41,481 nucleotides of DNA from Clostridia bacterium. GTDB lineage: Bacteria > Bacillota > Clostridia > UBA1381 > UMGS1253. The notes below the pieces were generated by a model that searched no databases, was not told the DNA's origin, and saw only the letters and a program-made list of their open reading frames with translations. This document shows, piece after piece, positions 6,163 to 32,740 of the stretch. Numbering within the stretch: the stretch's first letter is position 1; every line of letters begins with the position of its first letter. The translations under genes were made by a program, and so were the position numbers. The stretch lies in contig JAZNSA010000139.1 in assembly GCA_045590935.1 (NCBI GenBank), positions 1 to 41,481 on the forward strand, read 5' to 3'.

Positions 6163-7101
6163 TTATTCTGCTTTTCCGTCGCAACCTAAAACATTAACAA
6201 TCTTGTCTTTAACCAAATCCTTGATTGCCTCTCTTGCAGGCTTCAGGTACTGTCTTGGGTCAAAATGAGTTGGATTTTCAGCCATATGCTTTCTGATTGC
6301 CGCAGTCATAGCCAAACGAAGGTCAGAGTCTATATTGATTTTACATACTGCGCTCTTTGCCGCCTCACGGAGCATTTCCTCGGGAATGCCGATTGCATCA
6401 GGCATCTCGCCGCCGTTTGAGTTAATCATATCAACATACTTTGGAATAACAGAAGAAGCACCATGCAAAACGATTGGGAAATCAGGAAGCTGCTTCTCAA
6501 CCTCTTTTAAAATATCAAATCTTAGCTGAGGCTTCTGACCCGGTTTGAACTTGTATGCACCGTGACTTGTTCCGATTGCAATTGCAAGCGAATCAACACC
6601 CGTACGAGTAACAAAATCAACAACCTCTTCAGGTCTTGTATACGAAGCATCTTCAGCAGAAACGTTTACATCATCCTCAACGCCTGCAAGTCTGCCAAGC
6701 TCGCCTTCAACAACAGCGCCATGAGCGTGCGCATACTCAACAACCTTTTTTGTAAGCTCAATATTTTCTTCGTAAGGAAGATGAGAGCCATCAATCATAA
6801 CAGATGTAAATCCGCCGTCGATACACGATTTGCAAAGCTCAAAAGAATCACCATGGTCCAAATGAAGAGCTATTGGAAGACCTGTTTCCTCGATTGCCGC
6901 TTCAACAAGCTTAACCAAATATGTGTGATTTGCGTATTTTCTTGCACCGGCTGAAACCTGAAGAATCAAAGGAGCATTAACTTCCTTTGCAGCCTCTGTA
7001 ATACCTTGAATAATTTCCATATTGTTTACGTTAAAAGCACCTACCGCATATCCGCCTTCGTATGCTTTTTTAAACATTTCCTTAGTTGTAACTAATGGCA
7101 T
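6163..7101 (-). CDS. fba: Class II fructose-1,6-bisphosphate aldolase
   Basis: ALHLDHG, SVMIDGS, VEGELG, AIGTSHGAYK, VLHGAS, KINIDSD; start set at ATG 7101 by AGGAG spacing. Confidence 0.96.
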   Translation of the reverse strand: MPLVTTKEMFKKAYEGGYAVGAFNVNNMEIIQGITEAAKEVNAPLILQVSAGARKYANHTYLVKLVEAAIEETGLPIALHLDHGDSFELCKSCIDGGFTSVMIDGSHLPYEENIELTKKVVEYAHAHGAVVEGELGRLAGVEDDVNVSAEDASYTRPEEVVDFVTRTGVDSLAIAIGTSHGAYKFKPGQKPQLRFDILKEVEKQLPDFPIVLHGASSVIPKYVDMINSNGGEMPDAIGIPEEMLREAAKSAVCKINIDSDLRLAMTAAIRKHMAENPTHFDPRQYLKPAREAIKDLVKDKIVNVLGCDGKAE

Positions 7102-7271
7102 TAATATCACTCCTTGAAAAGATTTATAATATAATTATACCACTAAAAGAAAAAAATACAAGTCTTTTGTTAAAAAACTTTCAATCTTTTAAGCTTTTCT
7201 ACTATTTGTAAGAAAATAAATGAGTAAATCAAAAAAATTTGATAAAAATAAAATAAAAATGCAAAAAATAT

Positions 7272-10363: not shown

Positions 10364-10485
10364 AAAAACGGTACGCCTTCCTTTCCGATAAATTTGCAAC
10401 ATATTATATTGTATCATAAAAAAATACTTTTTGCAACAAATTTTAGTTGCACGATTTTTTTTACTGTGGTATAATTGATGTGTGC

Positions 10486-10599
10486 TAAATTTTGCAAAGC
10501 AAAATTTATTAAAGCCTGTCGGCTTTTTGTGCTCTTTCGAGCACTTCATCAATTGACGGCGTCGCAAAAATGCCCTTGCGAGCAAGCCCGTTCCCTACA
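10486..10599 (-). repeat. Cluster of short hairpins; minus strand begins with a GTAG-headed REP-like motif
   Basis: aaattttgc-aaa-gcaaaattt; aaagcc-tgtc-ggcttt; gtgctc-tttc-gagcac; cttgc-ga-gcaag; minus strand starts GTAGGGAACGGGCTTG. Confidence 0.45.
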
Positions 10600-10612
10600 A
10601 TTTTGTGGTACA

Positions 10613-10641
10613 TTGACTACATCGTTCAATGTTTATATAAT
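10613..10641 (+). promoter_or_regulatory. Sigma-A promoter of mnmA
   Basis: TTGACT-17 nt-TATAAT. Confidence 0.7.
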
Positions 10642-10684
10642 GAATTAGTAAAGTTGAATTGAAAGATTTAAGGATGATGAAAAT

Positions 10685-17970: not shown

Positions 17971-17997
17971 ACAAATTATTGCAGAAAGGAAAAATGT

Positions 17998-18185
17998 GTG
18001 GTATAATGAGTTCAAATGTAATTTGAACTCATTGAATTGCACTTCGTGCATTAAAAGGCAATTCAATTCATGATGGAACATCAATTCATGGCTTTGCCAA
18101 TTCATTAAAAGTAAATTTTTAGAAGATTTATATTTTTATGATGCAATTTTGAGTGGCATCTAAACCGTTCATTGATTATATAATG
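17998..18185 (+). repeat. Modular TGAATT/AATTCA-hairpin element, copy 1 (short)
   Basis: TGGTATAAT, TGAGTT..AACTCA hairpin, TGAATT-gcac ttc gtgc, three AATTCAT separated by mini-hairpins, and a 38-bp tail shared with 30603-30640. Confidence 0.8.
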
Positions 18186-18207
18186 AATTCACATAGTGAA
18201 TTCATTA

Positions 18208-18311
18208 GCGATATAAATTCCAGACGGAATTAGCGATATGTATTTCATACGCGATATATCTACGATGCGATATGTTGCTTTGCAACGAGAAAAGGAATTT
18301 ATAGTATATCG
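18208..18311 (+). repeat. GCGATAT-hairpin array (4 units)
   Basis: GCGATAT at 18208, 18233, 18251 and 18267, each followed by a different mini-hairpin; inverted ATATCG at 18306. Confidence 0.8.
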
Positions 18312-18330
18312 AAAAAGAAATGAAAGGAGC

Positions 18331-30234: not shown

Positions 30235-30391
30235 AATACAAACCTCCTTAAAATTTATGTCATCATTTATTATACATTGTTTCAATGAAATATGCAAGTG
30301 TTTTTTGTCGAAAGGTTAAAAAATTAACTAATTGTTAAAATATGTAAAAAGTATCTATAAAAAATGTACTATTGATTTTTTTGAAAAAATT

Positions 30392-30640
30392 TGGTATAAT
30401 GAGTTTGCAGAGCAAACTCAATGAATTGCCTTCGGCGTGAATTGAAATCTACGATTTCATGAATTGAGCCTTATGGCTCATGAATTGCACTAAAGTGCAT
30501 TATAAAGGCATTTCAATTCATGGAGCGAAGCGAGAATTTATGGCTTTGCCAATTCACGACAACGCAGTTGTCAATTCATTAAAATATATCTATATGAATG
30601 AATTTGAGCGGAATCCAAACCATTCAGTTTTTATATAATG
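30392..30640 (+). repeat. Modular TGAATT/AATTCA-hairpin element, copy 2 (4+4 units)
   Basis: RTGAATT at 30421/30437/30459/30480 and AATTYAY at 30515/30535/30551/30573, separated by distinct mini-hairpins; same head and tail as copy 1. Confidence 0.85.
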
Positions 30641-30763
30641 GGTGGTGTTTTGTATATGAAAAAGAGAAAAATTGCTTGACAATTTTGGAGCAATAGTATA
30701 ATCTATATAATTAGGGAATTATGTTATAATTAATATATGTTGTTTGGGAAGGGAGTAATTTGT

Positions 30764-32740
30764 TTGGCAAAAAAAGCATACGGAAACGACAGTATTTCTT
30801 CGCTTAAAGGAGCAGACAGAGTAAGGACAAGGCCTGCTGTTATATTTGGCTCTGACGGATTGGAAGGATGCTTTCATTCGTTTTTTGAAATTTTGTCTAA
30901 CTCGATAGACGAGGCAAGAGAAGGCTTTGGAAATGCAATTGAAATAACGAGATTTAAAGATAATTCAATAGAAGTTGTTGACCACGGACGAGGAACGCCT
31001 GTTGAGTTTAATGAAAGAGAAAACAGGTATAATTGGGAGCTTATATTCTGCGAAATGTATGCGGGTGGAAAATATAAGAATTCTGACGGCGGAGATTATG
31101 AATACAGCTTGGGATTAAACGGCCTTGGTGCGTGTGCAACGCAGTATTCGTCGGAATATATGGATGTTACCGTTATGCGAGATGGGCATAAATATTCGCT
31201 TCATTTTGAAAAGGGAGAAAATATTGGCGGACTTTTTAAAGAGCCTACAAGATTTAAGCAAACGGGAACAAAGATTAAATGGAAGCCTGATTTGGATGTT
31301 TTTACGGATATTGAAATACCGTCGGAAATGTTTATTGAAACAATAAAAAAGCAGGCAATTGTTAATCCGAACGTTGAGTTCACATTTTATAATGAAACCG
31401 CAGAAGGAATGGAAATGATGCAATTTTCATATCCTAACGGAATTGTTGATTATGTTGGCGAAAGAGCAGAGGGAAAGAACGTAACGGATATAAAATATAT
31501 TGAGGCAGAGCGCAGAGGACGAGACAGAGAGGACAAGTCCGAATATAAATTAAAAATGCAGATTGCATTTTGCTTTTCTAATGAAACGCCTATGCTTGAG
31601 TATTACCATAATTCAAGCTTTTTGGAGCATGGCGGCTCGCCCGATAAGGCGGTCAGAAGTGCGTTTGTTTCGGCAATCGACCAATACTTGAAGCAAACGG
31701 GAAAATATCAGAAAAACGAAAGCAAAGTAAGCTTTGTTGACGTAAGCGACTCGCTTATGTTTGTTTCAAGCTCGTTTTCAACGCAGACAAGCTATGAAAA
31801 TCAAACGAAAAAAGCAATAACAAACAAGTTTATTCAAGAGGCGATGACTGCGTTTTTAAAAGAACAGCTTGATATATACTTTATTGAAAACAAGGCAGAG
31901 GCTGAAAAAATTGCCGAGCAGATGCTTATAAATAAGAGAAGCCGTGAGTCAGCAGAAAGAGCAAGAGTTAATATAAAGAAAAAGCTTACAGGCACTATGG
32001 ACGTAACAAACAGGGTGCAAAAGTTTGTTGACTGCAGAAGTAAGGATGTTGACAAAAGAGAGGTTTATATAGTTGAGGGGGATTCGGCGCTTGGTGCGTG
32101 TAAGCAAGGGCGAGATAGCGAATTTCAGGCGATTATTCCTGTAAGAGGAAAGATTTTAAACTGCCTGAAGGCGGATTACGACAAGATATTTAAAAGCGAT
32201 ATAATAGTTGATTTAATAAGAGTTTTGGGATGCGGAGTTGAAATTAAAACAAAGCACAACAAGGAATTTAATTCGTTTGAGCCTGAGAATTTGAGATGGA
32301 GCAAAATTATTATATGTACGGATGCTGACGTTGACGGCTATCAGATTAGAACGCTTATTCTTACTATGATTTATCGTCTTGTTCCGAGCCTTATCGAAAT
32401 GGGAAAGGTTTATATTGCGGAGTCGCCGCTTTTTGAAATTACTCATAAAAAGGAAACTTATTTTGCATATACGGAAGCTGAAAAGGTGCAGATACTTGAA
32501 AAAATTAAGGATGATAACTATAAAATTCAGCGTTCTAAAGGTCTTGGTGAAAATGAGCCTGATATGATGTGGCTTACAACTATGAATCCCGAAACACGCA
32601 GACTTATAAGAGTTGAGGCGGAGGACGCAGAGCGTACATCGGAAATGTTTGAGCTTTTGCTTGGCGATAACCTTTTAGGAAGAAAAGATTATATCGCAAA
32701 CGAGGGAAATCGTTATGCGGAAATGCTTGATTTAAGCTAA
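30764..32740 (+). CDS. Type IIA topoisomerase subunit B (ParE/GyrB family, topo IV-like)
   Basis: EILSNSIDE, DHGRG, VEGDSA, PVRGKILN, DADVDG, RSKGLGE; TTG 30764 after GGGAG. Confidence 0.9.
   Translation: MAKKAYGNDSISSLKGADRVRTRPAVIFGSDGLEGCFHSFFEILSNSIDEAREGFGNAIEITRFKDNSIEVVDHGRGTPVEFNERENRYNWELIFCEMYAGGKYKNSDGGDYEYSLGLNGLGACATQYSSEYMDVTVMRDGHKYSLHFEKGENIGGLFKEPTRFKQTGTKIKWKPDLDVFTDIEIPSEMFIETIKKQAIVNPNVEFTFYNETAEGMEMMQFSYPNGIVDYVGERAEGKNVTDIKYIEAERRGRDREDKSEYKLKMQIAFCFSNETPMLEYYHNSSFLEHGGSPDKAVRSAFVSAIDQYLKQTGKYQKNESKVSFVDVSDSLMFVSSSFSTQTSYENQTKKAITNKFIQEAMTAFLKEQLDIYFIENKAEAEKIAEQMLINKRSRESAERARVNIKKKLTGTMDVTNRVQKFVDCRSKDVDKREVYIVEGDSALGACKQGRDSEFQAIIPVRGKILNCLKADYDKIFKSDIIVDLIRVLGCGVEIKTKHNKEFNSFEPENLRWSKIIICTDADVDGYQIRTLILTMIYRLVPSLIEMGKVYIAESPLFEITHKKETYFAYTEAEKVQILEKIKDDNYKIQRSKGLGENEPDMMWLTTMNPETRRLIRVEAEDAERTSEMFELLLGDNLLGRKDYIANEGNRYAEMLDLS

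Follow-up and report, generated by a model that had tools for sequence, protein, structure and literature searches.

What is the ladder of short repeats that stands ahead of a pair of topoisomerase genes in a clostridial genome, and does it work as RNA or as DNA? The ladder occupies positions 30392-30579 on the plus strand of contig JAZNSA010000139.1 (assembly GCA_045590935.1), a stretch of 41,481 nucleotides, here called the window, that belongs to the metagenome-assembled genome (MAG) of a Clostridia bacterium. We think, with about as much confidence as doubt, that it is an orphan (gene-less) copy of a mobile, transcribed and structured element that resembles the intervening sequences (IVSs) of 23S rRNA genes and belongs to the superfamily of the RNA motif Gut-1. 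Among the evidence for this answer are the covariation of its hairpins, the kinship of its left arm with Gut-1, its patchy and multi-copy distribution, and the recurrent linkage of such arrays to a PF05635 gene. Action as RNA and action as DNA have both been considered, and the two are not mutually exclusive.

Linkers, hairpins and competing helices

In the window copy, a sigma-70-type promoter-like site at 30372-30400 (TTGATT-17-TATAAT, 10/12 matches, TG-extended, from a promoter scan), whose extended -10, TGGTATAAT, lies at 30392-30400, leads into a head hairpin at 30401-30419 with 8-bp arms and a 3-nt loop, which starts 1 nt past the -10, as in most promoter-bearing copies. There follows the left arm, a Gut-1-like array at 30421-30498, in which four linkers of the ATGAATT type (L1 30421-30427, L2 30437-30443, which reads GTGAATT, L3 30459-30465 and L4 30480-30486) each precede their own hairpin (H1 30428-30436, H2 30444-30458, H3 30466-30479 and H4 30487-30498). 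After the centre, at 30499-30515, the right arm at 30515-30579 carries four linkers of the AATTCAT type (R1 30515-30521, R2 30535-30541, which reads AATTTAT, R3 30551-30557, which reads AATTCAC, and R4 30573-30579) with three modules between them, namely a tandem-G.A module at 30522-30534 and hairpins at 30542-30550 and 30558-30572. The element ends at 30579, and everything named here lies on the plus strand. Indeed, all of the linkers and hairpins and the extended -10 that were listed between 30392 and 30579 by an earlier reading made from the letters alone (the sequence-only reading) are present. The stretch folds better than its shuffles on both strands (z = -5.5 on the plus strand, -4.5 on the minus strand). 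Over the whole window ATGAATT shows no enrichment (22 occurrences vs 18.7 expected), and its clusters fall at two sites, this element and 18032-18105.

How real is this structure? We collected 118 unique copies, leaving those with an nhmmer score below 60 out of the copy anatomy and those below 100 out of the orientation counts, and linker, loop and energy counts were taken only from copies parsed as four left and four right linkers. Covariation was judged in an alignment of 67 copies, ten of the 77 full-length references having been excluded as near-duplicates, shortened copies or copies with long insertions (named as excluded are L038, L034, L120, L097, L132, L152, L082, L185, L047, L053 and L087). 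The five best-aligned hairpins have 97.5% paired cells in this alignment, with 153 double-change cells vs 27.6 in shuffles, a number that none of 500 shuffles reached, and this bears out the earlier picture of a structured, repeated element with compensatory change in its side hairpins. Stems are specific to their slot and shared among the copies of a subfamily, while divergent subfamilies carry wholly different stems on the same linkers. Hairpins are inherited slot by slot between copies, and the suggestion that an enzyme builds the array unit by unit finds no support. The arms of the head hairpin also covary among copies, which show several unrelated arm sequences. The first seven bases of the head hairpin in the window copy, together with the last two of the -10, resemble a degenerate left linker, and its end resembles the matching right linker, so the head looks like a one-rung mini-ladder itself.

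A second helix competes with the ladder. RNAalifold picks not the nested ladder but a pairing, P1, between L1 plus the 5' arm of H1 and the centre, which encloses hairpins 2-4. In the window copy its 5' strand is 30422-30431 (bases 2-7 of L1, the 5' arm of H1 and the first loop base), its 3' strand is 30506-30515, and it carries one T.T mismatch. P1 has 20 double-change cells vs 4.6 expected (again, 0/500 shuffles are as high), and in some subfamilies 11-13 of its complementary bases change together. The 5' arm of H1 has two possible partners, its own 3' arm or the centre. Median constrained energies are close (ladder -46.9, P1 -48.4 and the minimum-free-energy fold -52.6 kcal/mol, with the ladder better in 22/53 copies), so thermodynamics cannot choose between ladder and P1.

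The linkers are the most conserved part of all: among 43 canonical copies, L3 keeps its sequence in all 43, and L1 and L4 keep theirs in 42 each. The sequence-only reading had taken the linkers as compensatory rungs, yet R2 reads AAATCAT in 15 of these 43 copies and R4 does so in 11, with no compensation in L3 or L1. Its best example, the meeting of the only GTGAATT with the only AATTCAC, is present in the window copy but peculiar to it, since the L2/R3 end pair across the 67 copies is A-U in 54, G.U in 10, unpaired in two and G-C in just one, the window copy. What it had noticed about the strandedness of the loops has become a family rule. Across 53 canonical copies, left loops are of the form T-N(N)-C (H1 in 38/53, H3 in 35/53, H4 in 28/50) and never G-N(N)-A, and right loops are of the form G-N(N)-A (23/53 and 32/53) and never T-N(N)-C. 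Loop-loop complementarity between the arms was considered and dropped, the commonest right loop, GGA, having no TCC partner at the left.

The tandem-G.A module keeps its flanking G-A...G-A across subfamilies and sister families as its inner stem changes. At 30515-30538 the window copy has the pattern of a kink-turn, with a helix (30515-30519 with 30534-30538), a 3-nt bulge (30520-30522), a G.A pair (30523 with 30533), an A.G pair (30524 with 30532) and a short stem-loop of 2 bp and a GAA loop (30525-30531), a likeness to the motif as described in the available part of the literature (PMC5061560) that is one of pattern only. Unlike kink-turns, several sister families keep the tandem G.A without the bulge, and a plain hairpin stands at that place in about a quarter of family copies; only 20 of the 67 aligned copies have an unbroken C-stem between R1 and R2. 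The array is not one of clustered regularly interspaced short palindromic repeats (CRISPR), as the sequence-only reading had said: the repeats are 7 nt long, compared with about 25-40 nt in CRISPR, and the 'spacers' are palindromes conserved between copies.

Gut-1 and the sister families

Does the element have a named relative? The sequence-only reading had been unable to assign it to any family, and here it needs correction. In a search with 201 nt, the Rfam model Gut-1 (RF01706) aligns over its full length (1-77) to the left arm at 30419-30491 on the plus strand, with 25.2 bits (E = 0.0041), and the right arm gives a weak likeness on the minus strand (14.9 bits, E = 1.6). The gathering score is 50 bits, so the window element is a sub-threshold relative of Gut-1 and no member by Rfam's rule. 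Indeed, at gathering scores the whole window has no Rfam hit and no rRNA match, a 601-nt search at E <= 10 gave no Gut-1 hit and only chance-level matches of other families, and in a genome-wide search of its own MAG none of the 12 copies of its family (family 1) reached E <= 0.01 with Gut-1. The sister loci L203, L215 and L209 score 51-54 bits, above the cut-off, and families 2 and 3 of the same MAG score 37-52 bits. The model hits 21 of 41 relatives' genomes, up to 16 times each, and the hits often come as plus/minus pairs 100-150 nt apart.

In the available text of its description, Gut-1 is graded 'Y' as an RNA and 'n' as cis-regulatory, and is given as 'human gut only' and as a non-coding RNA (ncRNA) unaffiliated with mRNAs (PMC2864571). 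The window element shares with it the tandem mini-hairpins split by a constant heptamer linker of the purine-UGAA type, and both have uncultured gut bacteria as hosts. The Gut-1 consensus has three hairpins and a GUGAAAU-type linker; the window element has four left hairpins and an A/G-UGAAUU linker, the linker of its family lying one base off that consensus. Further, P1, the mirror-image right arm, the tandem-G.A module, the promoter, the head and the gene linkage all have no counterpart in the Rfam model. The available portions of the Gut-1 literature hold no mention of a four-helix-bundle gene, and no such arrays were found in the literature on modular interspersed repeats in Clostridia or on PF05635/TIGR02436/S23.

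The same architecture (promoter or terminator, head, left array, P1-type centre, tandem-G.A module and right array) recurs with other heptamers, among them GCGATAT/ATATCGC, GTGAAGT/ACTTCAC, AGCTAAA/TTTAGCT, TGATATT/AATATCA, TGGTATT/AATACCA, TGAAATA/TATTTCA and ATGAAAT/ATTTCAT, plus partial cases. Left and right linkers are exact reverse complements of each other in at least eight linker families, which can be read as covariation at the level of families, whether its cause is base pairing or inverted protein sites. An unbiased scan of the own MAG gave 27 heptamer/hairpin arrays, 18 of them with at least two reverse-complement heptamers within 220 nt, compared with one match in all for a reversed-word control.

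Two further ladder families, GTGAAGT/ACTTCAC and AGCTAAA/TTTAGCT, live in the same MAG (contigs C164 at 6999-7166, C18 at two sites, C24, C46, C68 and C3 at 131-279), and the C164 copy, which scores 52 bits with Gut-1, stands right before a PF05635 gene. The window itself holds a sister with the linker GCGATAT at 18179-18312, made of a -10, a head hairpin and four linker plus mini-hairpin units, with a centre complementary to linker 1 and the hairpin-1 arm; fuller GCGATAT copies, which have ATATCGC right arms, are present at other places in the MAG and also in relatives.

Copies, mobility and an IVS-type gene

Is the element mobile? Its own MAG (1.44 Mb, 175 contigs, 84% complete) holds 12 loci, four of them reaching contig ends. 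Among 41 relatives' genomes it is present in ten, patchily by genus, the best foreign copy being 94% identical and from another family; members of the one genus share just 77% identity in the neighbouring topoisomerase gene. Of 300 genomes sampled from the class, with two candidates scored in each so that copy numbers are floors, 37 are carriers, spread over 25 of 178 genera, and here too copies from other families are up to 94% identical. When genome contigs are scanned for an exact pattern, at least 117 loci appear in MAGs of uncultured gut and rumen Clostridia, and the record titles among the matches listed name goat, deer, buffalo, sheep and other gut MAGs. Two viral contigs contain the element; in one of them, a phage contig, it separates the large terminase gene from the gene that comes next and shares the strand of the genes. 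Module number varies among copies, and there are many types of truncation.

The empty-site comparison that the sequence-only reading had proposed does reveal an insertion polymorphism, at dnaK-dnaJ. In the own MAG (G000) the dnaJ leader contains a partial copy, which joins the native -10 directly on its downstream side; in the congeners G001, G002 and G003, which lack the element, the same place has just the promoter region or a short spacer. At the window locus the stretch TTGACAATTTT at 30676-30702 (plus strand, outside the element) is the probable native promoter of the topoisomerase subunit B gene (parE; open reading frame, ORF, 30737-32740), and it is kept upstream of the orthologue in the congener G002, where the element is absent. 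No target-site duplication is recognisable at the flanks, and the ends, L1 and R4, are inverted. Among related forms we found none that bears a transposase, only the PF05635-bearing one. Contigs from four sequencing runs align to the window only at about 30383-30591, the limits of the repeat, and related copies in such runs begin to align at about 30383-30392; the runs were searched as assembled contigs, in which missing cover elsewhere, including 30598-30640, says nothing. A 24-nt word from the topoisomerase gene, used to seek strains of the same species in metagenome contigs, had 0 matches. A bovine metatranscriptome contig of 1268 nt contains a related copy, which speaks to presence only.

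Copies sit in a preferred orientation. Across 81 copies, the nearest downstream ORF is on the same strand in 59 and on the opposite strand in 8, and the nearest upstream ORF in 48 and 22, respectively. Of 105 family copies, 57 have a -10-like box ahead of the head hairpin, and 39 of these boxes are TG-extended. The window copy is flanked by a yajC-like gene, which is encoded on the minus strand, and by plus-strand genes for topoisomerase subunits B and A (Pfam). Scans at the window copy found no terminator downstream, no sequestered ribosome-binding site and no minus-strand promoter.

Which gene travels with the element? The sequence-only reading had asked its neighbourhood for a cognate nuclease or transposase, and it is a different partner that turned up. 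Family-1 copies directly precede a PF05635 gene in 10/91 cases by start pattern and in up to 16/91 by flank clustering, and the Y1 transposase family is not associated. In these units a ribosome-binding site and an ORF of 116-122 aa begin about 12 nt past the last linker (two copies hold stumps of 31 aa), and the product is PF05635/TIGR02436, the four-helix-bundle protein of 23S rRNA intervening sequences (Pfam, NCBIfam), a family that, in the available part of one source, resembles Avd of diversity-generating retroelements (DGRs; PMC10053308). Seen from the gene, ladder arrays lie upstream of 10 of 20 PF05635 genes in 17 genomes, plain inverted heptamer arrays upstream of five and tandem heptamers just ahead of the ORF in three; one of the 20 is a true IVS inside a 23S rRNA gene with stems of heptamer repeats, and one lies directly after or within tRNA-like sequence. 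A Gut-1 model hit lies within 350 nt upstream in 12 of 56 PF05635 hits. An obligatory partnership with PF05635 was rejected: nine of ten carriers have it, but so do 14 of 31 non-carriers. PADLOC gave the four-helix-bundle protein a chance-level hit only.

Two of these loci deserve a word of their own. The true 23S IVS, in the relative G006 (L196/L216, contig C9, about 42300-43300), has its PF05635 ORF between heptamer-repeat stems. At L198 (G002, contig C7, 720-1220, minus strand) the PF05635 gene starts about 70 nt after the apparent 5' two-thirds of a tRNA, and this may be an IVS-like insertion in or beside a tRNA gene.

The window has further repeats of this general kind. A second, shorter copy of the element's own family lies at 17997-18105, between an MFS transporter gene and a LysR-type gene, and consists of a TG-extended -10, a head hairpin, one left linker (TTGAATT), hairpin 4, the centre, three right linkers and two hairpins; its flanks are too diverged in congeners for comparison. 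The tail at 30598-30640 (plus strand) belongs to a different repeat, of which it is a degenerate copy: a promoter-like module in which a 'GGCATC box' is followed after about 19 nt by TATAAT (here at 30633-30638) and which also occurs in the window at 18152-18184 and 10617-10646. Its pattern has 19 matches in the MAG, roughly 12-15 of them apparently true copies, and it stands alone or ahead of ladder head hairpins as the promoter region of other copies, with a spacing that does not match the standard -35/-10. A third promoter plus hairpin-series repeat, at 10465-10600 upstream of an mnmA-like gene, has at least three hairpins and no constant linker, and a relative of it lies on MAG contig C24. 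A module of about 110 nt rich in CCCTCC/GGAGGG pairings recurs after the last linker at C156, L034, L035 and L049; in L034, the sole locus searched, it matches no Rfam family at gathering score.

Transcribed insert, DNA repeat or regulatory RNA?

How, then, might such an element live? We propose that a full unit comprises a promoter (or host read-through), the left heptamer/mini-hairpin array that is Gut-1 proper, and the mirror-image right array, to which an 'autonomous' form would add the gene for the PF05635 four-helix-bundle protein. Copies would move as DNA, both inside a genome and from one genome to another, phages being one kind of carrier, and those that persist would be the ones whose transcription runs in the sense of the genes beside them. 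In the transcript, which may start at the element's own promoter, the hairpins, P1 and/or the 4 x 7-bp linker pairings would compact the insert and, by analogy with the stems of rRNA IVSs, probably offer a site for double-strand-specific processing, perhaps of the RNase III type. Compaction and a processing site together would mean that the insertion does little harm. The four-helix-bundle protein may bind the element and have a part in how it is mobilised.

The analogy is worth spelling out. In the available part of the source, the Coxiella 23S IVS has a 28-bp terminal stem, is excised by RNase III and carries an S23p ORF (PMC4990558). As in IVSs such as those of Coxiella and Leptospira, the same protein family is linked to the element, and the terminal inverted repeats that give about 28 bp of pairing there may have a counterpart here in 4 x 7 complementary linkers, which could yield a similar duplex in segments (as far as the available text of PMC4990558 goes). 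The distribution of both is sporadic, suggesting horizontal transfer, and the stems of the true IVS in G006 are built of heptamer repeats. Unlike IVSs, the window element lies outside any rRNA gene rather than in helix 9, 25 or 45, its pairing is broken by side hairpins, and most copies of it, including that in the window, have no ORF.

A good deal weighs against our reading, and it is best put together in one place. Where copies do have the ORF, it lies downstream of both arms, whereas in IVSs it lies inside the stem-loop. One relative, G040, has seven element hits and no PF05635 hit, and the own MAG, 84% complete as it is, has just a frameshifted PF05635 stump beside a family-1 copy. Nested pairing of the linkers, as first suggested, agrees with left/right complementarity across linker families but finds no support within the family: the 28 nested rung pairs are 95.6% paired across the 67 copies with no covariation beyond shuffles, so that covariation stands for the side hairpins and P1 and fails for the rungs, all four rungs are intact in just 23 of 67 copies, and P1, which competes with the ladder, excludes the outer rung. 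The arms are mirror images by loop type, and the right arms of sister families match Gut-1 with 26-46 bits on the minus strand. In 477 hairpins (K-type modules and centre segments excluded), stem pairs comprise 2150 Watson-Crick pairs (98.6%), 9 G.T, 11 A.C and 11 others, and the lack of a G.U excess over A.C is unusual for an RNA selected on one strand; such nearly pure Watson-Crick stems would suit selection that acts on both strands or at the level of DNA. Transcription that began at the usual distance from the -10, about 7 nt downstream, would drop most of the 5' arm of the head hairpin, which would then be largely missing from the RNA. In nine of 105 copies a terminator hairpin and T-run replace the head, six of them after tRNA genes, and right behind terminators sense transcription should be low. 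Finally, the assembled contigs of the runs give no start, end, strand or processing site.

Because of the mirror-image arms, the lack of a G.U excess, the head that abuts the -10 and the copies behind terminators, the main rival is a palindromic mobile repeat that acts as DNA, in the manner of REPINs or miniature inverted-repeat transposable elements (MITEs). Its hairpins and linker pairs would form in single-stranded DNA or a cruciform and be used by an enzyme acting symmetrically on both ends, the RNA structure being a by-product, and we regard this as a serious, if minority, possibility. It would account for the T..C loops at the left and G..A loops at the right, for right arms that match Gut-1 on the minus strand, for the Watson-Crick stems and for copies that lie between transcription units. 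The insertion polymorphism, the phage-carried copy and the identity across families suit it equally, and the varying module number is what slippage between identical linkers would give. Against it, no cognate nuclease or transposase was found, a target-site duplication is not definable, and the tandem-G.A module occurs on the plus strand only. Orientation is strongly biased with gene direction, although a bias of replication strand could mimic this, and if the linkers are protein sites, nine linker specificities need nine protein specificities.

Repeats of the repetitive extragenic palindromic (REP), REPIN, BIME and BOX types, the former with their RAYT transposases, are short intergenic palindromic units that occur inverted, in modular arrays and many per genome, and are co-transcribed with neighbouring genes. 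Our element is like them in its inverted palindromic intergenic units, modular variation in copy number, many copies and probable transcription with neighbouring genes. It differs in that the linker is constant here and not the hairpin, in that at least eight linker variants share one architecture, and in its linkage to a four-helix-bundle gene and not to a Y1 gene (RAYT or IS200). The sequence-only reading had thought of a REP-like element with an enzyme encoded elsewhere, but the Y1 family PF01797 has no hit in the carriers G000 (84% complete), G002 (98%) and G034 (96%), and 21 of the 31 element-free genomes do contain it.

Could the element instead be a trans-acting ncRNA with a function for its host, for example a decoy that shows single-stranded heptamers to an RNA-binding protein? 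This follows the original description of Gut-1, published as an RNA and not as cis-regulatory (PMC2864571, in its available text), and it would suit linkers that stay constant (42-43 of 43 at L1, L3 and L4) as hairpin sequences turn over, a promoter-like box of its own and a tandem-G.A module that is a possible protein site. We nevertheless consider it improbable. The window copy has no terminator and only two divergent copies end in one; the element is patchy among relatives, and congeners lack it at orthologous sites; truncations are of many kinds; one MAG of 1.4 Mb houses several linker families side by side; and fusion to a selfish-type gene is recurrent.

A further idea, that of a cis-regulatory 5' leader (such as a riboswitch or attenuator) dedicated to the topoisomerase genes, might be suggested by the element's place upstream of the subunit B and A genes, whose strand it shares, and by the switch-like look of the H1/P1 alternatives, but this is very improbable and largely refuted by the gene contexts of other copies, which precede dnaJ, a LysR regulator or four-helix-bundle genes or follow tRNA genes, as well as by the promoter that the gene has past the element, the G002 orthologue without the element and the lack of both a terminator and a sequestered ribosome-binding site.

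What would the preferred reading, a gene-less copy of a mobile and transcribed insert, mean more widely? The RNA motif Gut-1 has remained an orphan since its description in 2010, and 23S-IVS or Avd-like proteins outside DGRs are without a known role. What is new is that the Gut-1 motif is half of a mirror-image element, which is multi-copy and mobile and speaks many linker 'dialects', and that Gut-1-type arrays are recurrently fused to an IVS-protein gene, connecting both orphans. At a practical level, these repeats break the MAG assemblies of small-genome gut Clostridia and are now identified for genome annotation. We would go further, in a proposal that we hold tentatively and that as a whole is rather unlikely, and suggest that Gut-1-type arrays and PF05635 proteins together make up an unrecognised class of mobile element, in which the protein would recognise its own element through the heptamer linkers (at least eight specificities, each with a different protein variant) and promote its propagation or processing, gene-less copies would be non-autonomous riders, and the classical rRNA IVSs would be one specialised branch. 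The connection between array and gene thus furnishes a concrete hypothesis for both, that of protein-heptamer recognition, RNase III processing and mobility, and it may explain the origin and spread of IVS elements.

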